A stretch of 32,000 bases of DNA from contig NC_016012.1 of the NCBI RefSeq assembly GCF_000283555.1, positions 1,200,001 through 1,232,000 of the forward strand, written 5' to 3'. This stretch comes from Candidatus Arthromitus sp. SFB-rat-Yit (lineage in GTDB: Bacteria > Bacillota > Clostridia > Clostridiales > Clostridiaceae). Numbering within the stretch: position 1 is the stretch's first letter; each line of letters opens with the position of its first letter. The notes beneath the pieces were generated by a model. The model saw only the letters and a list, made by a program, of their open reading frames with translations. It was not told the origin of the DNA and did not search any database. A program made the translations under genes and the position numbers. Positions 474 to 32,000 of the stretch are shown here, one piece after another.

Positions 474-503
474 AAAATAAAAAAAGTAGGACAATATCCT
501 ACT
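474..503 (-). terminator. Rho-independent terminator after the mscS-lipoprotein operon
   Basis: On the minus strand, AGTAGGA-tattg-TCCTACT (485-503) is followed by a T-run (plus-strand A-run 479-485). It abuts the stop codon at 503-505. Confidence 0.6.
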
Positions 504-5656: not shown

Positions 5657-5688
5657 TCACCCTACAATTAGATTGTGGGGTGATTTTT
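5657..5688 (+). terminator. Rho-independent terminator of P1
   Basis: TCACCCTACAA (5657-5667), loop ttaga, TTGTGGGGTGA (5673-5683), giving an 11-bp stem with one G-U pair, then TTTTT (5684-5688). Confidence 0.65.
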
Positions 5689-9344: not shown

Positions 9345-9368
9345 AGGAGCAATTATTGCTCCTTTTTA
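9343..9368. terminator. Bidirectional terminator between birA and the convergent small-protein operon
   Basis: AGGAGCAA (9345-9352), loop tta, TTGCTCCT (9356-9363). TTTTT follows on the plus strand and an A-rich run precedes it. Confidence 0.6.
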
Positions 9369-9805
9369 ATTTCTTTCTCTTTACACTTTCCTCTATATTT
9401 AAATTCACTATCTAAAATATTTTTAATTTCCTCTTTAGATTTAGCAGAATTTATTTTTTCCTTTGTTCCCTTAATTTTAGAAATTTTCTCCTCTAATCTC
9501 TTAACCTTATCATTATCATTTTCACTTTTATATTTTTCAATCTCTTTCTCAATAAATGAAATCTTACTATCTAAATGAGCTAAAACATTCTTCTTAGCCT
9601 CATCAAAACTACCATCCTCTAAAAGTTTAATCATAGATTCTTTATGTTTATTGATCATCTTCTTACCATTTAAACACTGCGGACACTCTCTAGATATTTT
9701 TTTATCCATCCCCATTCCTGTAACTGATTGACCTTGAATCACTCCTGCTATAAAAACTAAAACACATCCTAAAATCAAAATAAAATTTTTAATTTTGTTT
9801 TTCAT
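9353..9805 (-). CDS. Small secreted helical protein (E), paralog of the neighbouring 129-aa protein; contains CPQC
   Basis: Start re-set to ATG 9803-9805, 5 nt after TAAGGAGAG. Signal-peptide-like MKNKIKNFILILGCVLVFIAGVIQG. The C-terminal KYKSENDNDKVKRLEEKISKI...KINSAKSKEEIKNIL aligns with protein D. Confidence 0.6.
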   Translation of the reverse strand: MKNKIKNFILILGCVLVFIAGVIQGQSVTGMGMDKKISRECPQCLNGKKMINKHKESMIKLLEDGSFDEAKKNVLAHLDSKISFIEKEIEKYKSENDNDKVKRLEEKISKIKGTKEKINSAKSKEEIKNILDSEFKYRGKCKEKEIKKEQ

Positions 9806-9840
9806 GTTAACTCTCCTTATCATTTTTATTTATTTAAAAT

Positions 9841-10230
9841 TTAAATAACTTCTTTATGCCTAACCTGCATAGCATCTCTTAAATCATCTTTTGTCTTTGC
9901 AGAATTTATATTGCTTAAAATTTTATTCAATCTCTTAATTTCACTCTCATACAATCTAATCTTATCTTCATTATTCTCTTTTTTAAAATCTTCAAGTTTT
10001 GTAACTGTAATCTCCATCATGTTATCTATGTACCCAAGTATGGATCCCCTGATCTCATCAATTGGTGTATTATCCCAATAATCATTTGGATCAACTTCAC
10101 TAACCCCAAGAGAAGCCATTGAATCTTGAGTATTAATACTAACTGCCTCATCTTGTTTATTTGAATATCCAATACAAAACGCTGAACAAACCAAAACTCC
10201 AATAATTGAAAACATAAACATCTTGTTCAT
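9841..10230 (-). CDS. Small secreted helical protein (D), paralog of E
   Basis: AGGAGGGA lies 5 nt before the ATG. Signal-peptide-like MNKMFMFSIIGVLVCSAFCIG. The C-terminal DFKKENNEDKIRLYESEIKRLNKILSNINSAKTKDDLRDAM aligns with protein E. Confidence 0.6.
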   Translation of the reverse strand: MNKMFMFSIIGVLVCSAFCIGYSNKQDEAVSINTQDSMASLGVSEVDPNDYWDNTPIDEIRGSILGYIDNMMEITVTKLEDFKKENNEDKIRLYESEIKRLNKILSNINSAKTKDDLRDAMQVRHKEVI

Positions 10231-10247
10231 AAAATCCCTCCTAAGAT

Positions 10248-10910
10248 TTAATAAATTACACCTTCTGCATAATTTCTCTCTTCACCATCTTTAATAATCA
10301 ATATTTGGTCATTAACTCCATTTTCAAGTCTAAAGCTCGGTCTATACGAAGCTTCCTCAGGATCTTTTGAAAATACTAAAAGCACATTATTTTTATCGCT
10401 GTTATTCCCAAAAATCTGTTTATACAAACCTTCAAGCTCTTCTTCAAATATCCTATCTAAATTTTCAACAACAACTGTACAATGACGAACATTTTCTCCA
10501 TTCTTCTTATATTCAATAGATTCAAACACATTGTAGAATAACTCATTACTTTCATTATCAATTTCATGTTTCAAAATTCTAAGGGTATCTTCTCTTAAAC
10601 TATCTCTAAGCTCGAGTTCTACAAAATTCCTATATTCTTTTTTCAAATCAACTCGAATAGATGGTTCAAACTTATCATAAAACTCTGAATATAATTCATT
10701 CTCAACCTCTACCTTTATCGCACTTTTCATACTATTAAAAACTTTCTGACGCTCCTTATCTATATTGTTTATAATACCAATTATCGCAATACCAACAGAT
10801 ATAAACAAAATAACTAGAACCTTTAACCACTCTTTTTGAAAAATATTTGTCTTGCTTCTCAAAAATTTACTATCATTAGAAACAACATTTCCATTCTCTT
10901 GCTTATACAA
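10248..10910 (-). CDS. Single-pass membrane protein (C), unknown function
   Basis: The track start TTG 10931 has no RBS. TTG at 10908-10910 follows GGAGGAG by 6 nt. One TM helix (WLKVLVILFISVGIAIIGIINNI) is followed by a charged helical segment (DLKKEYRNFVELELRDSLREDTLRILKHEI) and a C-terminal domain. Confidence 0.55.
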   Translation of the reverse strand: MYKQENGNVVSNDSKFLRSKTNIFQKEWLKVLVILFISVGIAIIGIINNIDKERQKVFNSMKSAIKVEVENELYSEFYDKFEPSIRVDLKKEYRNFVELELRDSLREDTLRILKHEIDNESNELFYNVFESIEYKKNGENVRHCTVVVENLDRIFEEELEGLYKQIFGNNSDKNNVLLVFSKDPEEASYRPSFRLENGVNDQILIIKDGEERNYAEGVIY

Positions 10911-10948
10911 CTTTATCTCTCCTCCAAACAATACAAATAAAATATCAC

Positions 10949-11260
10949 TTAAGATTTAATCCATTTTCTCTCAAGCCTAATCTCTTTTATCAAATCCTTT
11001 TTAAGACTTTCCCTAACATCATCTAAAAGCTCAACTCTAAGTTCTTTAAGTACTTCAGACTTTAACGAATCTTTAAGTTTTGCTTTAACTTTCGTTTCAA
11101 CTCCGTTTAAAATCTCTTCTTTAACATCCCTCTTATAATTTGTTACCATATATCTCGAAGACTCTGCCTTCACAAAATTAATTATTGGTATTTGAATAAT
11201 AGTCGATAAAAATAAAACAACAATCGGAATAAGTGCATATTTAAATTTTATAAACTTCAT
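10949..11260 (-). CDS. Small exported or membrane-anchored charged helical protein (B)
   Basis: 103 aa with an RBS (GAGGGAGAAG). The hydrophobic N-terminus ends in VKA-ES. It is followed by a periodic K/E/D/L helix (LKDSLKSEVLKELRVELLDDVRESLKKDLIKEI), weakly similar to the helical segment of C. Confidence 0.55.
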   Translation of the reverse strand: MKFIKFKYALIPIVVLFLSTIIQIPIINFVKAESSRYMVTNYKRDVKEEILNGVETKVKAKLKDSLKSEVLKELRVELLDDVRESLKKDLIKEIRLERKWIKS

Positions 11261-11362
11261 TAAAATCTTCTCCCTCGTTTAATCGTTAGATCTATTTTGG
11301 TATAATTGGATAATTTTAATACATTTGTAAAATTTAAAGTTTTTTGGTTTTTTTTAACGAGA

Positions 11363-11403
11363 TAAAAAAAATATGAAGAATAACTTAACAATTATCTTCA
11401 TAT
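11363..11403 (-). terminator. Rho-independent terminator after the 182-aa lipoprotein gene
   Basis: Minus strand: ATATGAAGA ... TCTTCATAT (a perfect 9-bp stem within 11371-11403) followed by TTTTTTTT (plus-strand A-run 11363-11370). Confidence 0.7.
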
Positions 11404-11414
11404 TTGAAAATCTT

Positions 11415-11963
11415 CTATTTAGTTGTATACAATAAAATATCACTGAACATTGAATCACTCACATTCTTGATTACTTTCTCGTAGTTATCAAACTGAAGTG
11501 ATAAATCTATTTTCCCATTTGGGTGATCATACCTATCTATATTTTTTATCTCCGTTAAATGAATTATTTCTTTTGAATATCCATTATCGGGCGTAAATAC
11601 TATTGAATTTCTTGTAACTTCAAAATTTCCCAAAATATCAACACCATCTAAATTGTATTTACCATAATATGTATTTTTTATATTAGCTAAATCCTCATCC
11701 TTAAATTCCTTTGCTTCAATATATGTACTATTTTCTCCTCTGCTTTCCATGTTTTCTCTCTTATCATAGGAATTCCTAGAAGTATTTCCCGTATCTCTGT
11801 TATAATTTTCAAAAGTTTTTTTATCACTTACACTGCTTAAAGCACTCTCAAACTTATCAACATTCGCACTTTTTGTACAACTAACCATTATGATTAATAT
11901 CAAAACCATACAAAATATAATAATAGGTCTTGTTATATTAAAAGAATTTCTACCATTGTTCAT
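11415..11963 (-). CDS. Lipoprotein (A), unknown function
   Basis: 182 aa with AAGGAG upstream. Signal peptide plus lipobox region RPIIIFCMVLILIIMVSCTKS. A disordered Asn/Ser/Arg-rich linker precedes a compact C-terminal beta-rich domain. Confidence 0.65.
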   Translation of the reverse strand: MNNGRNSFNITRPIIIFCMVLILIIMVSCTKSANVDKFESALSSVSDKKTFENYNRDTGNTSRNSYDKRENMESRGENSTYIEAKEFKDEDLANIKNTYYGKYNLDGVDILGNFEVTRNSIVFTPDNGYSKEIIHLTEIKNIDRYDHPNGKIDLSLQFDNYEKVIKNVSDSMFSDILLYTTK

Positions 11964-12117: not shown

Positions 12118-13011
12118 ATGAATTTAAATATAATAACTGTTCCTACATTTTATGGATGTGATAAAAAAGGAGTTGAACTAGGCCCTAAAACTCTAATTGT
12201 AAATAATCTTATATCTACTATTGAGAATTGTGGACACAAAATAAATGAAATAATTGATATACCAATAAAAATAGATGATAAAGATAAATTTAACACTAAT
12301 AAACAAATCAAATATTTTGATAAAGTAATACCTATGGTTAAGAATATCTCAAAAATAATTGAAGAAAGCCATAAAAACAATGTATTCCCATTGGTTATAG
12401 GTGGAGATCATTCTATATCTATCGGATCTCTTGCTGGTTTTTCTAAAAGTTTTAACGATACTGGAATAATTTGGGTGGATGCTCATGGAGATTTAAATAT
12501 TCCAAGCTCATCTCCATCGTGTAATGCTCACGGAATGCCTCTTGCTTGCTCTCTTGGATATGGACATAAGGAATTTATATCAATATTTGAAAAAACTATT
12601 GATCCAAAAAATGTATTTTTATTTGGAATACGCTCACTTGATAATTGGGAAAAAGAATTTATAATCAAAAATGAAATGCACGTTTACGATGGAAATTCAT
12701 TCGATAATATCCCTCAAAATACAATGATCGAAACCCTAAATAAATACATAATAAAAAATAATATTAAAAACTTCCATTTATCATTTGATATAGATGTATT
12801 TGATCCTTTTATTGCACCTGGAACTGGTACTCCTGTAAAAAAAGGATTATCTATGGAGAACGTTAAAAATCTTATGGATAAATTATTATCTTCTTTAAAC
12901 ATAGTTTCAATGGATTTTGTTGAATTTAATCCTCTTCTTGATAAAAACAATAAAACATTGAATGCTTGTCTTGAAATTCTTGACTTTACATTTAGGAGGA
13001 TAAACAAATAA
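12118..13011 (+). CDS. rocF: Arginase
   Basis: 297 aa. The ureohydrolase metal-binding motifs GGDHSISIGS, WVDAHGDLN and SFDIDVFDP are present. The arginase-type loop SSSPSCNAHGMPLACSLG is close to B. subtilis RocF TSPSGNIHGMPLAVSLG. Confidence 0.9.
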   Translation: MNLNIITVPTFYGCDKKGVELGPKTLIVNNLISTIENCGHKINEIIDIPIKIDDKDKFNTNKQIKYFDKVIPMVKNISKIIEESHKNNVFPLVIGGDHSISIGSLAGFSKSFNDTGIIWVDAHGDLNIPSSSPSCNAHGMPLACSLGYGHKEFISIFEKTIDPKNVFLFGIRSLDNWEKEFIIKNEMHVYDGNSFDNIPQNTMIETLNKYIIKNNIKNFHLSFDIDVFDPFIAPGTGTPVKKGLSMENVKNLMDKLLSSLNIVSMDFVEFNPLLDKNNKTLNACLEILDFTFRRINK

Positions 13012-13622
13012 TGAGATTATTATTTTTAGATACTGAAACTACGGATAAATCTCCGGGTCAAATATGCCAATTAACATATATAATATATGATACAGATTTA
13101 CCTAAGGAAAATAGAGTTCAAGCAAAAAATTTCTTCTTTTCTGTAGACTTTGTCACAGATACTGCCTATAATGTCCATGGATTTAATATTGATATACTAA
13201 AAAAATTAAGTGGAAATTTGAAATTTAAAGACCTCTACAAATTATTCAAAAAAGATTTATTAGAGAATGATTTCATAATCGGTCACAATGTAAATTTTGA
13301 TATTTCTTTTTTAAAAAGAGAGTTCGATAGAATCGACATTGAATTTAAACCTAAAAATTTGTTTTGCTCTATGAACTATTTTAAAAATATACTCAAACTT
13401 AAAAACTCAATTGGAACAATTAAATCACCAAAATTATCTGAGCTTTTAGATCATCTTAAAATCACTGAAGATAATATCTTAAGCTCCACAACCAAATTAT
13501 TTAATAGTGATGAAACTCATTTCCATGACGCACGGTTTGATACAACAGCACTCTATCTTGCAATTATAAAATCCATTAAGCTTAATTTAATAAGTAATGG
13601 ATTTTTTTCAAGTCAAATATAA
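13011..13622 (+). CDS. DEDDh-family 3'-5' exonuclease (DnaQ/epsilon-like, stand-alone)
   Basis: 203 aa. Exo I LFLDTETTD, Exo II GHNVNFDISFL and Exo III HFHDARFDT motifs are present. The ATG overlaps the rocF stop (TAATG at 13009-13013). Confidence 0.8.
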   Translation: MRLLFLDTETTDKSPGQICQLTYIIYDTDLPKENRVQAKNFFFSVDFVTDTAYNVHGFNIDILKKLSGNLKFKDLYKLFKKDLLENDFIIGHNVNFDISFLKREFDRIDIEFKPKNLFCSMNYFKNILKLKNSIGTIKSPKLSELLDHLKITEDNILSSTTKLFNSDETHFHDARFDTTALYLAIIKSIKLNLISNGFFSSQI

Positions 13623-13643
13623 AATTTACTAGGGGTGTTTTTT

Positions 13644-14990
13644 ATGATTAATGCAAAAAATTATATAAAAGATGTTTACCAAAAGGTTATATCTAAAAAT
13701 CCCTCAGAACTCGAATTTCATCAAGCAGTACACGAAATTCTATTTTCGCTTGAACCTTTATTGGAAAAATATCCAAAATATATAGATCAAAATATATTAG
13801 AAAGAATTGTTGAACCAGATAGATTTATTCAATTTAGAGTAGCATGGGTTGACGATAATGGAAAAACTCAAATTAATAGAGGATTTAGAGTTCAATTTAA
13901 TAATGCAATAGGACCATATAAAGGAGGTCTTCGTTTTCACCCAACAGTTTGCCCTTCTATAATTAAATTTTTAGGTTTTGAGCAAATATTTAAAAATTCA
14001 CTAACATCCCTTCCTATGGGTGGTGGAAAAGGAGGTTCTGACTTCAATCCAAAAGGAAAATCGGATAATGAAATAATGCGATTTTGTCAGGCATTTATGA
14101 GTGAACTTTATAAGTACATCGGCGAAAATATAGATGTTCCTGCTGGAGATATCGGAGTTTCCTCAAAAGAAATCGGATATATGTTTGGAGAATACAAGAA
14201 ACTTAAAAATGATTTTACTGGAGTTCTAACTGGAAAAGGAATTAATTTTGGAGGAAGTCTTGCTCGCACTGAAGCTACCGGATATGGTTTATGCTACTTT
14301 GGAGAAGAAATGCTAAATACATTCTCTAAATCTTTTAAAAACTCTAAAGTTTCTATCTCAGGATCTGGTAATGTTGCAATTTACGCAGCTCAAAAATCTT
14401 ATGAACTTGGTGCAACTGTGGTATCTATGAGCGACTCCTCTGGATACATTTATAATGAAAATGGAATCGATATATCTATTATAAAGGAAATCAAAGAAGT
14501 TAATCATGAAAGAATAAGTAAATATTTAAACTTTGATAAAAGCACAAAATTTGTTCCGAATTTTAAAGAAATTTGGAATGAAAAATGCGATATTGCACTC
14601 CCATGTGCAACACAAAATGAAATAGATGAAGAATCCGCAAAAATATTAGTTAAAAATGGATGTTTCTGTGTTTGTGAAGGATCCAATATGTCATCAACTC
14701 CCGAAGCTATAAAATTATTTTTAGATAACAACATTTTATTTGGACCTTCAAAGGCTGCAAATGCTGGTGGAGTTGCAGTTTCTGGTCTTGAAATGTCACA
14801 AAACTCTCTTAGATATTCATGGCCTTTTAAGGAAGTTGATGACAAACTTAAAAATATAATGAAAAATATATTTACGATTTGTTACGATACGTGTAATGAA
14901 TTCTCTCTTGGAAATAATTTTCTTGCAGGTGCAAATATTTCTGGATTTAAAAAAGTTGGAGATGCAATGATATCTCAAGGTGTATATTAA
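13644..14990 (+). CDS. gdhA: NADP-specific glutamate dehydrogenase
   Basis: GPYKGGLRFHP and LPMGGGKGGSDFNPKGKS motifs and a GSGNVA Rossmann motif are present. The track starts at GTG 13635. ATG 13644 lies 8 nt after AGGGG and gives 448 aa. Confidence 0.95.
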   Translation: MINAKNYIKDVYQKVISKNPSELEFHQAVHEILFSLEPLLEKYPKYIDQNILERIVEPDRFIQFRVAWVDDNGKTQINRGFRVQFNNAIGPYKGGLRFHPTVCPSIIKFLGFEQIFKNSLTSLPMGGGKGGSDFNPKGKSDNEIMRFCQAFMSELYKYIGENIDVPAGDIGVSSKEIGYMFGEYKKLKNDFTGVLTGKGINFGGSLARTEATGYGLCYFGEEMLNTFSKSFKNSKVSISGSGNVAIYAAQKSYELGATVVSMSDSSGYIYNENGIDISIIKEIKEVNHERISKYLNFDKSTKFVPNFKEIWNEKCDIALPCATQNEIDEESAKILVKNGCFCVCEGSNMSSTPEAIKLFLDNNILFGPSKAANAGGVAVSGLEMSQNSLRYSWPFKEVDDKLKNIMKNIFTICYDTCNEFSLGNNFLAGANISGFKKVGDAMISQGVY

Positions 14991-22725: not shown

Positions 22726-23973
22726 ATGAGAAGACTTAAGAGGAAATTTTTTATATTTATATTTACTATTTTTACAACAATTTTATATACAACAAATATT
22801 TCTCTAGCTACAACGCCCTATACTTACAAAATAACGCTCGAAGAAGATATACAGTTTGTACACGAAACAATAATAGACTACGATGGTAATGGAAACAATC
22901 AAGAAATAAATTACATCGAATTTGACTTAAACAACAAAAACATTTCATTATCACTTATTAAAGCAAATAACTTAACGGCATCAAAGGAAACTTTATTAAA
23001 CCAATTAAATGCTTCTGAAAGTATAACAGGTAAAAACATAATAGGAGGGATCAACGGAGATTTTTTTCAAATTTCAAATGGTCAACCACTTTTTACAACA
23101 ATATCAAATGGTGAAATATTCTCTATAACAGGCGATCCTTCTGATTATTTAAAAAGACCTGTATTTTATATAGACAAATCTGGTAACTACGATTTTGATT
23201 ATTTATATATAAATGGAACGCTTAAATTTCCAAAAAGTTCGTTTAAAAATTTAACTATAGACTCTATAAACAGGCTTGATTCATACAAACATACGAACAT
23301 ATCAAATTACAAAATTAATGAAGAGTCAACATACTACCCACATGAAGGCATACCTTCTAGATATATGTTAATAGAGCTTTTTAACAGTGATGGAAGTATC
23401 ATTGCTGGAACAACAATATATGGAAAAGTAATTGATGTGGGGGAAATGAATGAACCTAAAGAAATTAGAAAGAATGAAATTTTAATTACTTCCTATGGGG
23501 ATGATAATTATTATGATATAAATTACACATTTTTAAATGAAATTGTTTCCTTAAATTTTGATATTTACTCTACTAATCAAGGTAAATTTAAAAATGATAT
23601 TGTAAGTGCCTTCACGGGACACGAATATTTAATATTATCCGGAGAAGAAATGAACATTAATTATTATAAAACCCTAGGTGATACGGCTTTTATTTCAGGG
23701 CGTCACGCAAGGACAGCTTTAGGCATAACAGATGATAATAAACTAATATTATTTACAGTTGACAAATCAAATAATAGTGCAGGCATGACACTTTCTGAGC
23801 TAGCAAGATATTTAAAATATCTTCACGTAACTTCTGCGATAAACTTAGATGGTGGAGGATCAACCTCAATAGTACTTGAAAATAATACATATGATTTAAA
23901 CTTAATGAACGATCAAACAAAATATCAAAGAGAAATAACAGATGGAATTGGAATAATAATAAATAAGGCGTAG
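22726..23973 (+). CDS. Secreted phosphodiester glycosidase family protein (NAGPA/DUF2233-like)
   Basis: 415 aa. Signal peptide FIFIFTIFTTILYTTNISLA. C-terminal RTALGITDDNKLILFTVD ... AINLDGGGSTSIV is typical of the uncovering-enzyme-like domain. Confidence 0.8.
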   Translation: MRRLKRKFFIFIFTIFTTILYTTNISLATTPYTYKITLEEDIQFVHETIIDYDGNGNNQEINYIEFDLNNKNISLSLIKANNLTASKETLLNQLNASESITGKNIIGGINGDFFQISNGQPLFTTISNGEIFSITGDPSDYLKRPVFYIDKSGNYDFDYLYINGTLKFPKSSFKNLTIDSINRLDSYKHTNISNYKINEESTYYPHEGIPSRYMLIELFNSDGSIIAGTTIYGKVIDVGEMNEPKEIRKNEILITSYGDDNYYDINYTFLNEIVSLNFDIYSTNQGKFKNDIVSAFTGHEYLILSGEEMNINYYKTLGDTAFISGRHARTALGITDDNKLILFTVDKSNNSAGMTLSELARYLKYLHVTSAINLDGGGSTSIVLENNTYDLNLMNDQTKYQREITDGIGIIINKA

Positions 23974-24000
23974 ATTTAATATCTACGCCTTTTATTATTT
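23965..24000. terminator. Bidirectional terminator between the murT operon and the convergent P2 gene
   Basis: AAGGCGTAGAT (23965-23975), loop ttaat, ATCTACGCCTT (23981-23991), then a T-rich run. An A-rich run precedes it. Confidence 0.75.
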
Positions 24001-24039: not shown

Positions 24040-27000
24040 CTACCATTCAAAATTTATTTTTTGAGCTAAATTTTTAAGTTCAGTTTCATTAACCATTCTA
24101 TCAGCTATAGCTTGAAGAGTTGCAGTAGCTGATCCATAAACTGCTAATAATTTTTTATATTCTTCAACCCAGAATGCTTTTCCTTGAGTATCAGAATCTC
24201 TATTAACTATAGCATTATATAATGCTTCTACTTTAGTTTCAGCAGTTGTATATATTTTCTCAAATTCTCTCTCATTTATCATATTCAACAAGAATGCTCT
24301 TAGAGAAACTCTCTTATTGCTTAAGTTGTCTAAATGGAACATATATCCATTTTCATCAGCTGGCCTATTAAATACTACATTATAAACGTTAGCTAAATAG
24401 CTTTGTCCTTCATTTGTAGCGTTAATTTTTACATTTTTAAGGAATAAAGTTCTAGTTCTGTTATTTCTATCATTGTAATTAATACTTATCTCAACGTAAT
24501 CTTTTCCTGGAACTAGTCCATCAACAACTACTCTTCCATTCTCAAATCTAACTTTAACATTTGAGTATTGGTCATTAGTTTCAGTTACAGTTTTACCATC
24601 TTTATCTTTATATTTAAATCCAGCAATTGAAGGATTTGAATTGCTTTCGTGATGGTAAGTTCCTGAAGGTAGAGTCACACTTATTGAATTTGAACCTGTA
24701 GTTGAGTTAGTTCCTGTTACATTTACTGTAGTAGAAGAAGTTGATGAAGAACTACCTGAAGAACCGCCAGATATTGTTCCACTATTTGATGAAGTTGGCT
24801 TAGTTGTAACTGTTAAAACATTAGATTCAATCGTATCATTATTTAGTGGATCATTTGTTTCATTATAAGTATAAACTGCTACAAATTCATACTTTGTATT
24901 AGCCTTTAATCCAGAAACAACCTTAGTTATTACACCATCTTTTATATCTTGTGGAATAGCTAAATCAAGTTCTTTATATGGATTATTAGTTCCAGCTTCC
25001 CTATAACTAATATAAGCTGCTTTTACACCAGTTGTAGCATTTCCAAAGAAATCAGCATCAATTTCTAAAGTAACTGAAGATGATGTTGTACCATATTCAT
25101 CAATGTATATTGTTATAGGCTGATTGCTTACAATTACTCCAGCACTATAAGTTCCTTGATATTTTCCTGTACCCACAACATTATTAATTGCATGACTTCC
25201 CTCTTTAAATTGATCAAAAGTAACTCTATCACTAGTAATAGTATCTACAGTAACTTTACCACCAGTAGGCACAGTAGTTCCAAAACTTGCATCAACTTTA
25301 AACTGATCAGTTATATTTTCCATTCCTTGGTTTGTAGCCTTAACACTTGTTAAATTAACTGATTCAACAGCTCCGCCAGTCAAATCTACTTCTCCTGTCG
25401 CAGTTTTATCTCCTATTTTAAGAGTCCAATCAGCATCATTATTATTTGGAACTTGTCCATTAAACTGAACATCGAACACTAAATCTTTACCATTACTCTT
25501 TGTACTATTAACTGTAGCCTTACCACCATCAACTGTTAACAATGCTTTAGTATAATCTGCTGAACCAACAAATTTAGTCAACAACTCAGTACCACCAGGT
25601 ATTGTAATTTGTCCTTCAGAAGAACTAGTCTTAACAAAGCTAGCTTGTACAGCAGCACCATCAATCTTATCAGTTGAAATTATTAATGATGTTTTAACAG
25701 TACTTGCTAATCCTGGAGTAAACTCTGATTTTACCTGAGTTGCACCAGCGTCTAATGATTGATTTCCACTTTCAACTTTTGCTTTATCATCAGTATCATT
25801 ATACTCAAATATAACTGGTATAGCTTGATATCCATGTTTAAAACTATCTACATTTAATTTAACTTGAGCATTTACATCTATCCCAATAAAGTCCGTTTTT
25901 CCATTTTGGATATCTACATAAGCATAAGTAGTAGTACCACCACCTGGAACACTAGTTGTTGCTGCAACTGTTACCCCACTAAATGCATCAAAATATACTG
26001 CACTACCATGTCCATCTATATTAAACGAATGTTTACCTATCAACGCAGTAGCACTCGTAGTAGCATTACCCCCTGCTTGAGGAGCTACAAATCCATAACT
26101 TGCCTCAGGTGTAGGAACAAAATTATCTTCAAGAGCTGTAGCATCATTAGCCAGTTTTGCAGATTCTACAGTAACTGTAACCTCTTTACCTGTTGTAGGA
26201 TCTATCTTTAATTTTGCTCCCCCAACTTTAGCTGTGTTACCTGTAGTTTCTTCCATAACTGTTTGTACATACGTCAACAATGGAGCACTTCCAAGTTGTA
26301 TTCCATAACTAGACTTATCTTTTTCATGAGTTGGAAGCGTTGGTGCAGTGGCTTCACCAAAATCAGTTTTTATAGTATCTGCTAAAGTTCCCATATTAGT
26401 TGAATCATTAGTAGCAGTAACTCCTTTAATTGAAGAATTTTGATCTTCAAATAAAATAATATCTGAAGTTAAAGTATACTGACCGTTTCCATAAGTAACA
26501 TCTACTTTTATTGTATCATTTAAATCCAAGTTTCCGTTTTTACCTAACTTTAATAAGCTTACTGTATAATTTCCAGTAGTAGTATCTTTAGTAAGATCAA
26601 ATCCTTTTGTCGCATCTGTTCCTATATAAGCAGTAACTTTCTCTGGATTAAAAGTAGTAATATCTTTTGAGCCATTATTAAATTTAAGATTCTTCACTAC
26701 AAGCTGTCCTGTAGTTATATCAGTATCAAAACTTATAGTATCGCTTGGTTTCTTAACTAAACTTAAAGTATACTTTTCTGTACTATTATCTTTATAAGTT
26801 ACAGTAACATCTCCAGTATAAATTCCTGGGTCAGTCATTCCACTTACAGTTAATTTTTTTGTAGTACTATCCCAAGCTCCAGTAGCACCATTTCCGTTAG
26901 TCTCGATATTTACTCTTTCATCAAAAATTTTATGAGCAAATGTACCAGCGTCAATCTTATTTACATTATTAAAATCTAAATTCTTAAACGTAACTTCTGC

Positions 27001-27201
27001 GTTACCATTTGTAGTAACCTCAACAGATGTTTCTAAGTATTTTATTTGCAAAGCATCTAACTTAGCTGCTAAATCTGCACTCAATCTTGAATCTTGAGCG
27101 TGTGCTATTACTGCTTGTCTACCTACTGTTCCAACAGTAACCATTAAAGAATTTATTCCAAGTGCTGCTGCTAAAGCAAGCGCTACTCTTTTTTTATTCA
27201 T
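24040..27201 (-). CDS. Large secreted surface protein, paralog 2 (P2): candidate major S-layer protein with C-terminal beta domain plus two DUF4214-like repeats
   Basis: Start set to ATG 27199-27201 (GGAGG at 27214-27218). This gives MNKKRVALALAAALGINSLMVTVGTVGRQAVIAHA-QD, 1053 aa. Rich in Thr/Gly/Val/Ala/Asn/Asp/Lys, with zero Cys. FN3-like unit (VSGLKANTKYEFVAVYTY). S/T/G linker. No LPXTG. Confidence 0.9.
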   Translation of the reverse strand: MNKKRVALALAAALGINSLMVTVGTVGRQAVIAHAQDSRLSADLAAKLDALQIKYLETSVEVTTNGNAEVTFKNLDFNNVNKIDAGTFAHKIFDERVNIETNGNGATGAWDSTTKKLTVSGMTDPGIYTGDVTVTYKDNSTEKYTLSLVKKPSDTISFDTDITTGQLVVKNLKFNNGSKDITTFNPEKVTAYIGTDATKGFDLTKDTTTGNYTVSLLKLGKNGNLDLNDTIKVDVTYGNGQYTLTSDIILFEDQNSSIKGVTATNDSTNMGTLADTIKTDFGEATAPTLPTHEKDKSSYGIQLGSAPLLTYVQTVMEETTGNTAKVGGAKLKIDPTTGKEVTVTVESAKLANDATALEDNFVPTPEASYGFVAPQAGGNATTSATALIGKHSFNIDGHGSAVYFDAFSGVTVAATTSVPGGGTTTYAYVDIQNGKTDFIGIDVNAQVKLNVDSFKHGYQAIPVIFEYNDTDDKAKVESGNQSLDAGATQVKSEFTPGLASTVKTSLIISTDKIDGAAVQASFVKTSSSEGQITIPGGTELLTKFVGSADYTKALLTVDGGKATVNSTKSNGKDLVFDVQFNGQVPNNNDADWTLKIGDKTATGEVDLTGGAVESVNLTSVKATNQGMENITDQFKVDASFGTTVPTGGKVTVDTITSDRVTFDQFKEGSHAINNVVGTGKYQGTYSAGVIVSNQPITIYIDEYGTTSSSVTLEIDADFFGNATTGVKAAYISYREAGTNNPYKELDLAIPQDIKDGVITKVVSGLKANTKYEFVAVYTYNETNDPLNNDTIESNVLTVTTKPTSSNSGTISGGSSGSSSSTSSTTVNVTGTNSTTGSNSISVTLPSGTYHHESNSNPSIAGFKYKDKDGKTVTETNDQYSNVKVRFENGRVVVDGLVPGKDYVEISINYNDRNNRTRTLFLKNVKINATNEGQSYLANVYNVVFNRPADENGYMFHLDNLSNKRVSLRAFLLNMINEREFEKIYTTAETKVEALYNAIVNRDSDTQGKAFWVEEYKKLLAVYGSATATLQAIADRMVNETELKNLAQKINFEW
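24043..24408 (-). other. C-terminal tandem DUF4214-like repeats of P2
   Basis: SYLANVYNVVFNRPADENGYMFHLDNLSNKRVSLRAFLLNMINEREFEK, then VEALYNAIVNRDSDTQGKAFWVEEYKKLL...LQAIADRMVNETELKNLAQKINFEW. This aligns with the P1 and P3 tails. Confidence 0.6.
24670..24807 (-). other. Ser/Thr/Gly-rich low-complexity linker in P2
   Basis: Residues TTKPTSSNSGTISGGSSGSSSSTSSTTVNVTGTNSTTGSNSISVTLP lie between the FN3-like unit and the conserved C-terminal cassette. Confidence 0.8.
26452..27060 (-). repeat. Two tandem ~100-aa N-terminal modules in P2 (protein-level duplication)
   Basis: AEVTFKNLDFNNVNKIDA...GDVTVTYKDNSTEKYTLSL versus GQLVVKNLKFNNGSKDIT...IKVDVTYGNGQYTLTSDI. The same motif order appears in both. 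Aligned by eye only. Confidence 0.45.
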
Positions 27202-27660
27202 ATTATTTTTTTGCCTCCATTTTTTATTTGAAATCAATATTTTCTTATTCTTATGTAAATATTAACTATGCAAGTTGTTCCATAGAAGTTCCAAATCCTT
27301 TTTACAAATCATCTTCATACTTCCAAATCCCCAACTAAAAGTTATATTTTATCATCTATCTACTCATTTGTTAGACTCTGTTTTATCAAAATAATTATAA
27401 AAACCTATTTTTTCGCTTGATTATCAATTTTAATAGTTTAACATTGTTTATTGCTTGTCCATTTACTAAACCTAGCAATGATACACTACCATGTCGAAAT
27501 TCATTAAAATATCTTGAAAACAAAACTAAATAACTAAAATTTCCTATTATTAAAATAATATTTTTTTCGGTTTTATGTCAAACTTTCCAGTAAAAAGATA
27601 AAACTTCTCCTCAAAAATTTTATCTGCATTGTTATACAATATAAACTTAGAGAATTCTTT

Positions 27661-27675
27661 CTACATGTTCCCTCC
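27661..27675 (-). promoter_or_regulatory. Orphan Shine-Dalgarno plus start-stop (GGAGGGAACATGTAG) in the P2 upstream region
   Basis: Minus strand: GGAGGG (27670-27675), aac, ATG (27664-27666), TAG (27661-27663). The element sits in the loop region of an imperfect hairpin formed by AATTCTTT (27653-27660) and AAAGAATT (27691-27698). Confidence 0.3.
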
Positions 27676-27735
27676 AATTAACTCAAACATAAAGAATTGC
27701 ATTAATTTTTATAAAATAATAACAATTACATTACA

Positions 27736-27765
27736 ATATTACTACATTTTTTATACTAAAGTCAA
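27736..27765 (-). promoter_or_regulatory. Candidate distal sigma-A promoter for P2 (would give a ~530-nt leader)
   Basis: Minus strand: TTGACT (27760-27765), 18-nt spacer, TAATAT (27736-27741). A second candidate is TTGACA (27576-27581), 18 nt, TATTTT (27552-27557). Sequence matches only. Confidence 0.35.
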
Positions 27766-27942
27766 CCTATTTTATAATTATTTTCCTAAAATATATACTT
27801 GTTTCCCTATATTTTATAGTAAAATATTTCATATTTCATAAACTATAATTGCTCATAATACCCGAAACCTTAAGTTAATTTAACTAAAATTTTATTTATA
27901 AAATCTAAAAATGTTATACCATACTAATTTTAAATAAAACAA

Positions 27943-27971
27943 ATAGTCATTTGAAAATTTCAAATGACTAT
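27943..27971 (-). terminator. Rho-independent terminator of the GT2 gene
   Basis: ATAGTCATTTGAAA (27943-27956) is the reverse complement of TTTCAAATGACTAT (27958-27971). The minus strand continues with T-rich TTGTTTTATTT. It overlaps the TAG stop. Confidence 0.7.
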
Positions 27972-28951
27972 ACAAACAAAAACAAATTATAAAGATGTCT
28001 ATACCCAAAATCCATAAGCTTACTTTCTATTATTTTAATAAAACCAATCCCACTAAATATTGCAGTTCTACTACTCTCATATTTGAATACATCCTCACCC
28101 ATAAAACAATTAAAACCATACTCATCTATAAATCTACATTTAACATCTGGATAATATCTCTGCATTATATCATTAATAATCATTATAATATCTTTTTCAT
28201 ACACAATAACTATGTTCTCAAAATTTCTTAAAACATTATCAAACAAATAAATCAACTTAAGCTCAAAATTTCTATACATCATTTCTAATTTATTCTCAGG
28301 ATTAAGCGATGTATTTGTTTTATGAACTCTATAATTATAAACCACATCAGGTAAATTTCCTATCTTAAACCCTGCATTATGAAATTCAAGATAAATAAGC
28401 TTATCCTCAATAATCGAAAACTCCTTCTTAAATGGCATAAGTTTTATAAATAAATCACGTCTACCGAATAACCCTCCCCCGTTTATACAAGACCCAGAAT
28501 ATATCCTTAAAAATTGAATATCTTCATTTAGAATTTCATAATTAAGAGTTTCCATCATTTTCATATAAAGCTTGCTACCATTACCAAAACTCTTTAAATA
28601 ACATCCTATAAGATCATAATTACCCTCTTTTAAATACTTAAGTTGCTTCTCATACCTATAAATCTCATTAATATCATCTCCATCACACCTTGCAATATAT
28701 TTTCCACGAGAAAGCAAAACTCCAACCTTCATAGCCTCACATATTCCACCATTTCTTTTTGTTATAACCCTAATTCTTTCATCCTTTTTTTCATACTCTC
28801 TTAAAATATTGTAACTCCTATCTGTAGAACCATCATCAACCAAAATTATATCTAAATTAGTATGAGTTTGATTAACAATACTATCAAGTGTATCCCTTAA
28901 ATAAATTTCATTATTATATACTGGTACAATAACACTTATTAAATCCTCCAT
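27968..28951 (-). CDS. Family 2 glycosyltransferase (GT-A fold)
   Basis: 327 aa. ISVIVPVYNNEIYLRDTLDSIVNQTHTNLDIILVDDGSTD plus a DGDD (DXD) motif. Confidence 0.88.
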   Translation of the reverse strand: MEDLISVIVPVYNNEIYLRDTLDSIVNQTHTNLDIILVDDGSTDRSYNILREYEKKDERIRVITKRNGGICEAMKVGVLLSRGKYIARCDGDDINEIYRYEKQLKYLKEGNYDLIGCYLKSFGNGSKLYMKMMETLNYEILNEDIQFLRIYSGSCINGGGLFGRRDLFIKLMPFKKEFSIIEDKLIYLEFHNAGFKIGNLPDVVYNYRVHKTNTSLNPENKLEMMYRNFELKLIYLFDNVLRNFENIVIVYEKDIIMIINDIMQRYYPDVKCRFIDEYGFNCFMGEDVFKYESSRTAIFSGIGFIKIIESKLMDFGYRHLYNLFLFV

Positions 28952-28978
28952 AGCACAATGTCCCCTTTTACATAAATT

Positions 28979-29015
28979 AAAAAATAGCTAGAATTTTTTA
29001 AAAAAATCCTAGCTA
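28979..29015 (-). terminator. Hairpin plus T-run between the 298-aa gene and the GT2 gene (terminator or attenuator)
   Basis: TAGCTAGAATTTTTT (28985-28999) pairs with AAAAAATCCTAGCTA (29001-29015) with one mismatch. TTTTTT follows on the minus strand. It ends about 25 nt before the GT2 RBS. Confidence 0.55.
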
Positions 29016-29120
29016 AATCTATATAAAATCGAATTCAAATTTGATATTAATAATTTACGTAAACCATATAAATTCATTTAATTATAATTCGTGATATATC
29101 ACAAGTCCTAATAAATTAAA

Positions 29121-30017
29121 CTATAAGCTGTTAAACTCATCAATATATTTTTCAAGTGCATCTTTATCTTCCCTTTTAAGTGCATACTCACATAAAATCA
29201 TTAATGTATTCTTACCTATAAAACTATATAAATCTTTATTTAAATTAAAATAATTTTTATATTTGTTACTTATATTAAGTGCATATTTTTCTATAACTTC
29301 ATCCAATTCTTTATTCTTAATTTTAGAATCAAGTATATAATACTCCCAAATTGGATTATCATCAAGTATACTTAATCTATCTAATATAAATCCATCAATC
29401 TCATTACATTCAATTAATTTTAAATAATCTCTTATCTTTATAATATTTATCTTAGTATTTACAAAATTCTTATATTCATAATTACTTACTCTATCTTCTA
29501 ATACGACCTCTTTATTAACTAAATCATTAATAACAAAATTTATATTACATGGCACTATCTCTTTTAATATGAAATATAGTTCATTTAATTCTGAATAATC
29601 TTCTAAAAAAAATTCATCAGCATTTAATCTTATAGCTATTTTATTAGAACAATCATAATTATGCTTAATTGGATATGAGTTAGAACAAATTTTATATAAA
29701 TTTTTATCCAAAACCTCATCTTTTAAATTAATCTCTATTCCATAATTTCTATAATATAAAAGATTCTCTACAAAATAATCAAAATCCTCATATATGTTAT
29801 AGTATTCAATCAATTCCTCATAATCATCGCCAAAAAAATAATCTTTCAAACCATCTGATACTGAATCTATAAGCTTTAACACCTTAATCCTTTTTTGTAC
29901 TTTTAAAATTAAATTACTATTTATCCTCTCTTTCCCTAAAAGTTCATCCATTATATAATAGAAAAAATTAATATTCCCTATTAAAAATTTAGAGTAGGCA
30001 TGTATAAAATCTCCCAA
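29121..30017 (-). CDS. Hypothetical cytoplasmic acidic protein, no recognisable family
   Basis: 298 aa. The TTG start follows AAGGAGAAT (two tandem AAGGAGAAT copies). No TM segment or signal peptide. Rich in Tyr/Glu/Asp/Asn/Ile. Confidence 0.6.
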   Translation of the reverse strand: MGDFIHAYSKFLIGNINFFYYIMDELLGKERINSNLILKVQKRIKVLKLIDSVSDGLKDYFFGDDYEELIEYYNIYEDFDYFVENLLYYRNYGIEINLKDEVLDKNLYKICSNSYPIKHNYDCSNKIAIRLNADEFFLEDYSELNELYFILKEIVPCNINFVINDLVNKEVVLEDRVSNYEYKNFVNTKINIIKIRDYLKLIECNEIDGFILDRLSILDDNPIWEYYILDSKIKNKELDEVIEKYALNISNKYKNYFNLNKDLYSFIGKNTLMILCEYALKREDKDALEKYIDEFNSL

Positions 30018-30082
30018 TTTATTCTCCTTAAAAATTAATTCTCCTTATATTAATAGGTATTAACCAATTAAAATATACCCAT

Positions 30083-30112
30083 AATAAAAGGCATGTACCT
30101 ATGGCACACACC
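30083..30112 (-). terminator. Possible terminator after P3
   Basis: Minus strand: GGTGTGTG-ccatagg-TACATGCC (8 bp including G-U pairs) followed by TTTTATTAT. Confidence 0.4.
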
Positions 30113-30120
30113 TTTATTAA

Positions 30121-32000
30121 TTACTCTACTCTTAATCCAAGACTATATAAGAAGTTTCTAGTTTCTGACTCACCAAGCATTCTTTCAGATATAGCCTGCA
30201 TAGCCGCAGTTCTATCTCCAACTTGTGCAATTGTTTCTTCTAAAGTCTTAACCCACCAAGCAAGTCCTTCAGAATCTGATGTTCTTCCTGTAACAGATCT
30301 ATACATACGCTCTACGTACTTAGTATTATCTAAGTTTTTCTCTTTATATTCTTGTTCGTTAACTATATTAGACGTGAAATAATTAACTGAAAACTCTTGT
30401 GAAGAAAGTTTTGATGTCCAATATGCCATTCCATCTGGATCACCATCTCTTAAGAAGAATATATTATAGAAACCTTCAATCCACTCTTTTGCATTTGTAA
30501 TTTTCTTAGTTGTAAATGGCTCTATATCCATAGCTAACTCTTGTCCATCTTTAAGCACAACTACTAATTCAAGTCCTTCAGTTAAATTGTTTGGAATTAT
30601 TCCATATAACTTAACTAAATTCTCTTTAGTATCATAGAATGAACTTGCAATTGAATCTCCAACAATTGAAACATCTTTTATAATTCCATTTGGATCATTA
30701 AATAATATTTCAAATTCCGCTTTAGTTGGAGTAACATTCTTAAGTTCAAATGATTTTAATAAATCTCCTTCTTCTCCAGCTGAAGTACCATTTCCAAGTG
30801 TTCTTATCGTCATAGGATTTACAGAAATAACATCATAATTTGTAAACCTTCTGTTTATATCACCATCTCCAGAGTTAAACGTAACAATTAATTCCGTAAA
30901 CTTATAATCTGTTCCAGACTTTAACCCTGTTATCAATAAATCTTTATACTCAGAGGCATTTTTTTGAGGATCCTTTAAAGTATTATCAAGTTTAGCATAA
31001 GACTGCATAGATCCAATTTTAGTATCCTCTTTTAAAATCTTACCATCATAAAGATTTCCTTCCGAATCCTTTACTTGTATTCTCTTTATTGTATCCTCAG
31101 GATCATATAAAGCATCATAAAGTACTACTCCATCCTCCAAAGGTCTAACGTTAGCATGATTATATCCTTGTGCTTTATCTTCTTCTGAAAATGGACCAAT
31201 ATAACGGATTATATTATCATCAGTTGATACAATCTCACCTTTATCATCTACATCAACATTAACAAAATAAGAAACTGTAGGTTTAATTGCTAAAGGATCT
31301 AATGGATTTGTATTATCAATATTTATATTCTCTGTTAATAGAGGATCTAAATAAGGAATTATTCCTTTTTTACCTTCTATAGCAGTTTGAGTTGATGTTT
31401 TTTGAACTACACTCTTGTCCACAAGTGTTGGAAAAATCAAAGAACCACCAAAAGATATATTAGTTATCTCAGATCCTGTTGGTAATCCATAAATCTTAAA
31501 ATAAATATTCCCTTCTTTGTCTACAATTTTAGGAGCATTATAAACATTTGTATACTGATTTATCTTACCTGTTGTGGTATCCATAACTAAATCCTCAATT
31601 GATATCTTTTTAGTTTCAGTTTTAGCACCACTTGTATATGTCACATTAAGTGTAAAATCTTTATTCACCAAATTGCCTGACTCATCTTTCATACCAAGTG
31701 AATTTTGTATAATTGTCGCAAGAGTTTCTTGTTGAACTAATTCAATCTGAGAACCCTTTCCACTTGATAAAATATTTAAATTCTTAGTATATTCATTAAC
31801 AGCTGCATCTATATTAGACTTCAAAGCAGCTTCAACATTACCCGAAAACTTAACCTTGATATAAGCATATCCACCTGTTGATTTATCCCTTAAGTACGAT
31901 TTTTGATAACCTTGCATATCTTCTCTTGCTACAACTGAAGTATTTCGAATTACCCCACCTTCAACTCCAGTTATTGTTAAAAACTGCTCTTCTGCATTTA
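30121..32000 (-). CDS. Large secreted surface protein, paralog 3 (P3), 3' portion; the frame is open to the window edge
   Basis: The track starts at Met 31917, but the 27 codons upstream (NAEEQFLTITGVEGGVIRNTSVVARED) contain no stop, so the gene continues beyond 32000. FN3-like unit ITGLKSGTDYKFTELIV. The C-terminal cassette is shared with P1 and P2. No Cys in the visible part. Confidence 0.85.
   Translation of the reverse strand, partial: NAEEQFLTITGVEGGVIRNTSVVAREDMQGYQKSYLRDKSTGGYAYIKVKFSGNVEAALKSNIDAAVNEYTKNLNILSSGKGSQIELVQQETLATIIQNSLGMKDESGNLVNKDFTLNVTYTSGAKTETKKISIEDLVMDTTTGKINQYTNVYNAPKIVDKEGNIYFKIYGLPTGSEITNISFGGSLIFPTLVDKSVVQKTSTQTAIEGKKGIIPYLDPLLTENINIDNTNPLDPLAIKPTVSYFVNVDVDDKGEIVSTDDNIIRYIGPFSEEDKAQGYNHANVRPLEDGVVLYDALYDPEDTIKRIQVKDSEGNLYDGKILKEDTKIGSMQSYAKLDNTLKDPQKNASEYKDLLITGLKSGTDYKFTELIVTFNSGDGDINRRFTNYDVISVNPMTIRTLGNGTSAGEEGDLLKSFELKNVTPTKAEFEILFNDPNGIIKDVSIVGDSIASSFYDTKENLVKLYGIIPNNLTEGLELVVVLKDGQELAMDIEPFTTKKITNAKEWIEGFYNIFFLRDGDPDGMAYWTSKLSSQEFSVNYFTSNIVNEQEYKEKNLDNTKYVERMYRSVTGRTSDSEGLAWWVKTLEETIAQVGDRTAAMQAISERMLGESETRNFLYSLGLRVE
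30124..30492 (-). other. C-terminal tandem DUF4214-like repeats of P3
   Basis: EWIEGFYNIFFLRDGDPDGMAYWTSKLSSQEFSVNYFTSNIVNEQEYKE, then YVERMYRSVTGRTSDSEGLAWWVKTLEE...MQAISERMLGESETRNFLYSLGLRVE. Confidence 0.65.

Follow-up and report, generated by a model that had tools for sequence, protein, structure and literature searches.

Variable secreted proteins of a segmented filamentous bacterium share a conserved beta-sandwich and DUF4214 C-terminal cassette

Segmented filamentous bacteria (SFB) are textbook commensal inducers of intestinal Th17 cells and IgA. We analysed a 32,000-nucleotide stretch of Candidatus Arthromitus sp. SFB-rat-Yit (NC_016012.1, positions 1,200,001 to 1,232,000 of the forward strand; hereafter the window), in which P1, P2, MurT, a family-2 glycosyltransferase (GT2) and arginase are exact matches to proteins of that strain. 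Three of its genes, P1, P2 and P3, encode paralogs within an SFB-lineage family of Sec-exported, cysteine-free surface proteins. In each, an N-terminal signal peptide leads into an all-beta display body that evolves fast, and the protein ends in a conserved cassette, a beta-sandwich followed by two DUF4214 repeats. Sequence and gene order identify P2 as the positional ortholog, in rat SFB, of SFBNYU_003340 (P3340). P3340 is the dominant Th17 and B-cell antigen of mouse SFB, and it belongs to the DUF4214-tail family. The likeliest role of the cassette would be retention of these proteins in the wall or envelope, a reading to which we lean with some reservation.

Both the family and the anchor hypothesis were already known. 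In the passages of Pamp et al. 2012 (PMC3371716) that deal with them, 19 secreted Cluster.1 proteins of the sequenced mouse-SFB genomes are unified only by four conserved C-terminal regions like DUF4214 and the phycobilisome linker structure 2KY4, the related Cluster.3 contains an FN3 protein, and Cluster.1 and Cluster.3 are suggested to be components of surface structures. The corresponding passages of Jonsson et al. 2020 (PMC7474095) describe SFB as being without sortase, report that 14 or more of the predicted surface proteins in human SFB, P3340 among them, share a C-terminal motif, and postulate the motif as an anchor, citing immunoelectron microscopy of P3340 at the cell wall. Later, a 2025 cryo-electron tomography study (PMC12780176) called DUF4214 in SFB a 'likely surface-anchoring domain', a 2026 preprint made the same anchoring proposal for SFBNYU_003240, which also belongs to the family, and the usual clostridial wall-binding domains, SLH included, are reported in passages of two of these papers to be largely absent from SFB (PMC12780176; PMC7474095). 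Encoded in an SFB genome, predicted to be secreted, and carrying DUF4214-like tails on dissimilar proteins, P1, P2 and P3 are members of the family that the 2012 and 2020 passages describe; nothing essential differs, and the three proteins match the field's working hypothesis. A description of the window made before this analysis (the sequence-only reading) had called the system uncharacterised, which the publication of the family in 2012 and of the anchor proposal in 2020 and 2025 contradicts. The value of the present work is confirmation of a hypothesis that is already the field's own, together with three additions: a confident model of the cassette that sharpens the anatomy of the module, the conservation of tail against body, and a conserved cluster of cassette, glycosyltransferase and methyltransferase genes. 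In the passages of Pamp et al. and Jonsson et al. the conserved beta-sandwich is not treated as part of the module, nor are the tail and body conservation and the glycosyltransferase cluster quantified.

The shared cassette: anatomy, conservation and spread

The three genes and their parts are as follows.

2736 to 5651, + strand: P1 gene, 971 residues (BAK81612.1/WP_014095072.1), annotated in SFB-rat-Yit as 'hypothetical protein'
2736 to 2822, + strand: P1 predicted signal peptide, about residues 1-29, MNKLKTISSISLGVAVLSLSLPNSFETSA, by sequence inspection with a putative cleavage site
5013 to 5648, + strand: P1 cassette, an FN3-like beta-sandwich and then two DUF4214 repeats (profile match, about residues 760-969)
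24040 to 27201, - strand: P2 gene, 1053 residues from the ATG (BAK81633.1/WP_014095093.1), 'DUF4214 domain-containing protein'
27097 to 27201, - strand: P2 predicted signal peptide, residues 1-35, MNKKRVALALAAALGINSLMVTVGTVGRQAVIAHA, by inspection, with putative cleavage after AHA
24694 to 24813, - strand: P2 linker rich in S, T and G, residues 797-836 (S, T or G at 31 of 40 positions), directly preceding the cassette
24427 to 24687, - strand: P2 cassette beta-sandwich, residues 839-925, with the GLVPGKxY motif (AlphaFold2 model, 7 strands)
24058 to 24411, - strand: P2 eight-helix domain with two DUF4214 repeats, residues 931-1048 (Pfam, AlphaFold2 and Foldseek)
30121 to 32000, - strand, running off the window: P3 gene, of whose 721 residues the C-terminal 625 are visible
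30124 to 30762, - strand: P3 cassette, a beta-sandwich and then two DUF4214 repeats (profile match, visible residues 413-624)

The three open reading frames (ORFs) lie at the positions and on the strands that the sequence-only reading had given them, and its description of them as cysteine-free holds for all that can be seen. No cysteine occurs in the 2649 visible residues of P1, P2 and P3; in the remaining 24 ORFs of the window cysteine makes up 1.3% of the residues, a background that predicts about 35 cysteines in 2649 residues and a probability of about 6e-16 for none. At about 720-1050 residues the proteins are large rather than 'giant', as they had been called. Signal peptides, by inspection, are present in all three, with typical n-h-c regions that end in TSA (P1), AHA (P2) and AWA (full-length P3). 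Residues 1-34 of P1 have an AlphaFold2 predicted local distance difference test (pLDDT) score below 50. The P2 ORF is opened by a TTG at 27237, and the P2 N-terminus is conserved across all orthologs. The start codon and signal peptide of P3 lie about 290 nucleotides past the end of the window and were seen on the rat-SFB contig L010, where the full-length protein is 721 residues, cysteine-free, with the signal peptide MFSKKFMKKLIGIFLSLSVASGVMTHIGSKFAWA/VP. P3 orthologs of 719-723 residues are found in mouse, turkey and other SFB-lineage contigs.

Significant BLASTP similarity among the three proteins is confined to their tails: E=7e-25 for P1 and P2 (175 residues, 30% identity), E=1.4e-18 over 180 residues for P1 and P3, and E=2.7e-19 over 114 residues for P2 and P3. 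Because the best match outside the tails is marginal (E=0.003, 82 residues), the bodies are unrelated at the sequence level, in agreement with the earlier picture of a variable display region on a conserved C-terminal module. The tails are DUF4214: against a PF13946 gathering score of 23.2 bits, P1 scores 25.8, P2 38.8 and P3 50.9, with two stretches in each. The motif strings quoted in the sequence-only reading are present and aligned in the tails, and the positions invariant across 13 aligned tails include Y..R..D..G (twice), W and RM..E.E. Also borne out was the absence of known anchors, since a Pfam scan of the three proteins at E<=1 gave no match to SLH, CWB2, LysM or choline-binding repeats, and a search of them with the regular expression [LN]P.[TSA][GAN] found no LPXTG-like motif; the C-termini are hydrophilic, with no hydrophobic tail. 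An NCBIfam scan of the three returned nothing significant.

The cassette was modelled with AlphaFold2 as the last 215 residues of P2, with the 13-tail alignment as input. The model (pLDDT 87.8; predicted template modelling score 0.79) has a 7-stranded beta-sandwich (residues 1-87, block-mean pLDDT 72-93) followed by eight helices (93-210), and suggests that the cassette would be one rigid two-domain unit. The element earlier taken for a short beta domain is a full sandwich of about 85-90 residues with 7 predicted strands, so that the cassette is about 205-215 residues long and not the roughly 170 first given for the shared tail. The sandwich carries an L.P.K.Y motif (consensus GLVPxKxY) that is nearly invariant in 32 cassette proteins, and its Foldseek matches, which are weak, are to PKD- and Rib-type domains. 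It is an integral conserved part of the module, an addition to the 2012 description. For the helical part, the best Foldseek matches in the PDB are the phycobilisome rod linkers 7sc8_BK, 9v7g_X and 3pru_D (E=2-4e-3, probability 1.0, about 120-130 aligned columns), and a profile search reaches the ApcE REP domains at E=7e-9. On these models, the two DUF4214 repeats would make up a single domain of eight helices that resembles a phycobilisome linker, with an FN3-like domain attached to it. The phycobilisome linker family PF00427 (CpcC/CpcG and ApcE REP) shares with the cassette the helical fold and a repeated motif of the Y..F.R..D/E..G..W type, but the cassettes fall short of its 28.7-bit threshold, P3 scoring 14.2 and P1 and P2 giving no match, which indicates a common superfamily and not membership. 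Further, unlike the hosts of phycobilisomes, SFB are non-photosynthetic and have no phycobiliproteins, and the role of the cassette is extracellular.

In all ortholog comparisons made for P1, P2 and P3, the cassette is more conserved than the body:

P2, rat and mouse: cassette 80% identical, body 50%
P2, rat and turkey: cassette 63%, body 35%
P3, rat and mouse: cassette 93%, body 81%
P1 and its positional ortholog: cassette 64%, body 45%

The P1 ortholog is in another SFB genome, in the gene order MscS-P1-ArgRS. A full-length AlphaFold2 model of P1 (pLDDT 73.9) is all-beta, with about 8 sandwich modules and then helices at residues 838-965; its Foldseek matches in the PDB are immunoglobulin (Ig) and FN3 arrays.

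A cassette profile run over every ORF of the window matched P1, P2 and P3 only. In 1.84 billion representative proteins the profile gave 17,508 matches, 277 of them at E<=1e-30, and two classes were described from the best 150 of the 17,508. In the first, about 55 proteins have a single whole-cassette match at the extreme C-terminus. Forty of these were inspected; they are 245-1824 residues long, the N-terminus resembles a signal peptide in most, and all but two of them contain 0-2 cysteines. Pfam found DUF4214 in all 32 of those scanned and FN3 in the body of 8. First-class members with an assigned organism are all SFB, and the remainder are metagenomic. Proteins of the second class have 3-11 matches to the helical unit only. 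Ten of them were scanned, and by their signal peptides and passengers they appear Firmicute-like. Among the passengers are BspA-type leucine-rich repeats (LRRs), choline-binding repeats together with Big_2, and SH3_3 joined to a VgrG3-like domain, presumably a wall hydrolase. Secreted proteins in which 8-10 DUF4214 repeats are fused to passengers of these kinds are P0116 (508-3042 of contig L009) and P0100-P0112, and the protein with SH3_3 and the VgrG3-like domain is encoded beside a capsule-type locus (Wzz, CpsD-like, CpsB). DUF4214 arrays may be surface modules well beyond SFB. When 36 aligned full-length cassette proteins served as the query profile, P2 orthologs and two unrelated weak matches came back; a search of genome contigs with the cassette alignment returned two SFB-lineage loci from metagenome-assembled genomes and none from the reference SFB genomes. 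An SFB-lineage origin of the 'MLRKK...' subgroup of cassette proteins is suggested by one member, on contig L005 (31% GC), which is from the same sample as the divergent SFB-lineage contig L007.

P2 and the mouse Th17 antigen

A search with full-length P2 returned 61 proteins, 59 of which are 1012-1129 residues long and contain PF13946. Aligned over 100% of its length, P2 has 54% identity to a protein of mouse-SFB-NL (P0039, AID45212.1) whose 90% cluster includes EGX28318.1, 'hypothetical protein SFBNYU_003340'; AID45212.1 is the protein expressed as 'Th17Ag' in the 2025 study (PMC12780176). This full-length homology, together with the kept gene order GT2-P2-NAGPA-GatD-MurT, places P2 in the orthologous group of P3340. 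P2 and P3340/AID45212 have the same length and the same neighbours, and differ in that the well-conserved cassette follows a body in which only half of the residues are identical. In SFB-turkey (LXFF01000021.1) a second P2-type gene, encoding 1092 residues, lies in tandem after the P3340 ortholog (L006 13439-16717).

The peptide QFSGAVPNKTD, presumably a mouse Th17 epitope, is present in all mouse-type P2 orthologs, from residue 570 of the mouse ortholog. Its counterpart in rat P2 is QFNGQVPNNND (residues 567-577, about 25470-25502, - strand), identical at 7 of 11 positions. The site lies in the fast-evolving body of P2, outside the cassette. The peptide resembles the G..P.K..Y motif of the cassette beta-domain, and was considered as a part of that domain; this was rejected, as the peptide is in mid-protein. 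The CD8 epitope SGLIYVTL of SFBNYU_003240 was absent from P1, P2 and P3 and from every other protein retrieved before that check.

The sequence-only reading had put the three proteins forward as a candidate S-layer or wall-anchor system. In one version of this, P2, and by extension its locus, would encode the S-layer subunit, and the cassette would anchor the S-layer as SLH does in Bacillus and CWB2 in C. difficile. P2 has several traits typical of S-layer genes: it is monocistronic and flanked by terminator-like hairpins, has GGAGG as its ribosome-binding site, and is preceded by a 730-bp upstream region with a strongly conserved leader. Its mature body is acidic and cysteine-free, glycosyltransferase genes adjoin it, and its ortholog is described as abundant on the surface (PMC12780176). 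However, the location of that ortholog does not fit. Cryo-electron tomography of SFB shows two regular outer layers of unassigned composition (PMC12780176), and in the published passages on its localisation by immunoelectron microscopy or immunogold the mouse P2 ortholog is at the SFB cell wall, masked by outer layers (PMC12780176; PMC7474095). The protein is abundant, and immunogold and nanobodies gain access to it only at filament tips unless the cells are permeabilised (PMC12780176). Access at the tips only places it beneath the S-layer of intracellular offspring and beneath the hair-like layer of filaments; P2 is then not the outermost lattice, which argues against an S-layer subunit and makes this proposal, for P2, very unlikely. 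P1 and P3 may still belong to the S-layer or the hair-like layer.

Proposed envelope retention and its alternatives

In the retention reading, which we favour, the cassette would hold the protein non-covalently in the envelope after Sec export and signal-peptide cleavage, and would replace the sortase/LPXTG, SLH and CWB2 systems, which published analyses of SFB genomes describe as missing or mostly missing. The linker and beta-sandwich body would push the variable region outward; the S/T/G-rich linker of P2 is a candidate wall-spanning spacer or O-glycosylation region. The likeliest ligand would be a wall glycopolymer or a peptidoglycan feature, perhaps made or trimmed by the glycosyltransferase, methyltransferase, epimerase and NAGPA-type enzymes encoded around P2 and P3 in all SFB lineages examined. 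Speaking for this reading are the sharing of one tail by unrelated bodies, the stronger conservation of that tail, the absence of another known anchor, the gene context and the published wall localisation of the P2 ortholog. We infer both that the cassette is the cause of wall localisation and what its ligand would be. The logic is that of SLH (Bacillus, Paenibacillus, Thermoanaerobacterium) and of CWB2 (the Cwp proteins of C. difficile), in which one non-covalent module serves variable Sec-exported passengers. The cassette differs from these in having no sequence match to them, in its place at the extreme C-terminus behind a beta-sandwich, and in that its binding is only proposed.

There are two weak precedents. 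One is the multi-DUF4214 protein described above that is fused to SH3_3 and the VgrG3-like domain. The other is Psh, an RTX-DUF4214 protein of P. putida that has been proposed to sit on O-antigen (preprint 10.64898/2026.09.02.748959). Like the SFB proteins, Psh is secreted and surface-associated, has a DUF4214 helical domain and a gene that neighbours those for surface-glycan synthesis, and its proposed contact is with a surface glycan; it differs in being Gram-negative, exported by a type I secretion system (T1SS), with an RTX body, a predicted O-antigen contact and no beta-sandwich partner.

Several points weigh against retention. The O-antigen contact of the P. putida protein was modelled, not measured (10.64898/2026.09.02.748959). 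In the literature searched there was no binding experiment with any DUF4214 domain and a Gram-positive wall, as the sequence-only reading had said in calling such a role unestablished. Phycobilisome linkers, the only relatives whose structures have been characterised, bind proteins and not glycans. The invariant Y, R, D, G, W and E residues are a family-wide signature of DUF4214 and linker domains and may be structural, saying nothing of a ligand. One multi-DUF4214 protein has choline-binding repeats as well, so DUF4214 is not its sole possible anchor, and the peptides of a DUF4214 protein that were found in human gut luminal fluid fit shedding as well as anchoring. Further, the cassette is not uniformly basic, its isoelectric point (pI) being 8.9 in P1, 7.0 in P2 and 4.6 in P3. 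Modules that stick to anionic wall polymers by charge alone are expected to have a generic positive charge, which cassettes ranging from pI 4.6 to 8.9 are without; generic electrostatic wall binding was considered and is unsupported.

The kinship with linkers also bears on a different role, in which the cassette would be a protein-protein docking or assembly module, cassettes binding each other or a common envelope scaffold. Such a module would build the S-layer or hair-like layer, or dock many passengers on one anchor, one candidate scaffold being a conserved protein of about 375 residues encoded beside P3 in other SFB lineages. Phycobilisome linkers bind inside phycobiliprotein rings, and it is rod and core linkers that are the best structural and profile matches of the cassette. 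The 375-residue protein, with its predicted membrane anchor and divergent cassette, adjoins the P3 ortholog; SFB have the two regular outer layers seen by cryo-electron tomography (PMC12780176); and the P1 model is elongated, its roughly 8 sandwiches reaching an estimated length similar in scale to the 34 nm of the hair-like structures. Set against this, the P2 ortholog is under the regular layers and not within them, and the 375-residue protein has lost the second R..D..G..W motif. Moreover, very different passengers share the cassette, which a generic retention tag fits better than a lattice contact. We regard docking as unlikely, though with enough in its favour to be taken seriously.

The cassette might instead bind host or mucus, or be a folding, stability or export-quality module of proteins that are released. 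DUF4214 occurs in many released Gram-negative T1SS substrates, the luminal-fluid peptides would fit release, and P3340 is transferred into host epithelial cells (PMC12780176). On the other side, the P2 ortholog is found on the bacterial wall, and the cassette is the most conserved part of the proteins across rat, mouse, turkey and other hosts, and the host-facing bodies diverge fast. A binder of host-specific ligands would be expected to show the reverse of such conservation across SFB hosts, which makes a host-directed role unlikely; non-retention roles as a whole seem to us improbable.

If the cassette is a retention module, it would define a new class of wall-binding domain, explain how antigenic bodies diversify on a constant tail, and provide a handle for displaying or stripping SFB antigens. 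A broader proposal can be put forward, tentatively and with more doubt than belief: that the cassette represents a new Gram-positive envelope-retention class, equivalent in function to SLH and CWB2, that recognises a lineage-specific glycan made by the products of the neighbouring GT2, TylF and epimerase genes, whose copy number varies, that cassette proteins other than P2, namely the highly conserved P3 or the roughly 30-nm P1, form the S-layer and hair-like layer, and that the multi-DUF4214 tails of secreted LRR and choline-binding-repeat proteins, which by sequence features appear to come from other Firmicutes, likewise act in retention.

Gene neighbourhood of P2 and P3 and minor observations

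The genes around P2 and P3 have a conserved order, in full [~375-aa cassette protein]-[P3]-[TylF-type]-[GT2 x1-4]-[P2]-NAGPA-GatD-MurT. The SRR27489441 contig has all of it, as does mouse, except that there only the N-terminal half of the TylF-type protein is left; the loci of rat, turkey and MAG.106 agree with the order as far as they extend. In mouse-SFB-NL the order is [719-aa DUF4214 protein = P3]-[298 aa]-[GT2]-[P3340]-NAGPA-GatD-MurT-...-GDH, the same as in rat. NAGPA, GatD and MurT follow P2 in every SFB locus examined. The neighbours of P2 in the window, and their counterparts elsewhere, are:

27968 to 28951, - strand: GT2, between P3 and P2 (Pfam Glycos_transf_2, E=7e-35)
29121 to 30017, - strand: ORF of 298 residues between GT2 and P3, equivalent to the N-terminal half of a TylF-type protein of 594-622 residues
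22726 to 23973, + strand: NAGPA-type phosphodiester glycosidase, cysteine-free and convergent with P2
L007 5488-7356, L006 3301-5169 and L001 4628-6412: long TylF-type genes
L003 3672-4793, L007 2010-3080, L001 1062-2195 and L002 1071-2204: genes of the 375-residue protein

Rat and mouse have a single adjacent GT2 gene, SRR27489441 has 2 and turkey has 4. The 298-residue ORF matches residues 2-299 of the 622-residue protein of L007 (BLASTP E=7e-102, 53% identity). In the long forms, which occur in turkey SFB, MAG.106 and the divergent SFB lineage, the C-terminal half is the TylF O-methyltransferase domain PF05711; rat and mouse SFB have lost the methyltransferase half. The NAGPA protein appears to be exported, as its N-terminal segment is hydrophobic and signal-like, and its gene shares with P2 one bidirectional terminator-like hairpin (23965-23991). 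Epimerase/dehydratase genes lie just past the cluster in mouse and in the divergent SFB lineage. The wall-polymer locus of C. difficile is adjoined by cwp genes, and S-layer glycosylation clusters show like placement. By this analogy the gene context lends circumstantial support to a glycan link, which could be to the cassette ligand or to protein glycosylation, and a functional link between GT2 and the cassette proteins is plausible.

On the mouse, SRR27489441, MAG.106 and Ca. Dwaynia contigs, the gene for the protein of about 375 residues directly precedes the P3 ortholog; in rat it would sit just past window position 32000. The N-terminal segment of the protein is hydrophobic and, by inspection, predicted to anchor it in the membrane, and its cassette is divergent, matching the profile at E=7e-15 to 5e-22. 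A membrane-tethered partner for the cassette family is a possible role.

Within the region upstream of P2, a block of about 230 nucleotides (27564-27793, - strand) is about 93-95% identical between rat and mouse, in contrast to the body of P2, in which identity is only 50%. The block contains the following site:

27711 to 27765, - strand: promoter-like site TTGACT-18-TAATAT with a 28-nucleotide element, TATTGTAATGTAATTGTTATTATTTTAT, about 510 nucleotides upstream of the P2 start

The 28-nucleotide element (core 27711-27738) overlaps the -10 hexamer and extends downstream of it. It is unique in the window, 0 occurrences being expected by chance, and a core of 25 nucleotides is identical in five SFB lineages, namely the rat, mouse, turkey, SRR27489441 and MAG.106 contigs. 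Elsewhere the core lies at these positions:

L003 9474-9498
L004 3432-3456
L006 9681-9705
L007 9570-9594
L001 7720-7744

A second conserved element, GTTTGAC(T/A)TAAAACC, is found downstream of the first. An Rfam scan of the window gave no match. The 28-nucleotide element could act as an operator, or a long 5' leader of the antigen gene could begin there.

The window has some smaller ORFs as well. Directly after P1, a GTG-start ORF of 132 residues (5680-6078, + strand) has no Pfam match; it may be a real gene because a counterpart of 128 residues is a called gene at the same position in L008, another SFB genome (8925-9311). At 9353-11963 (- strand) there are five consecutive small ORFs of 156, 129, 227, 103 and 182 residues, and at 503-1540 (- strand) one of 345 residues, all without a Pfam match and with N-termini that resemble signal peptides or lipoprotein signals (e.g., ILGC and MVSC). 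These six ORFs probably encode SFB-specific envelope proteins. In L008, four called genes of similar size (12570-14596) occupy the same position as the run of five.

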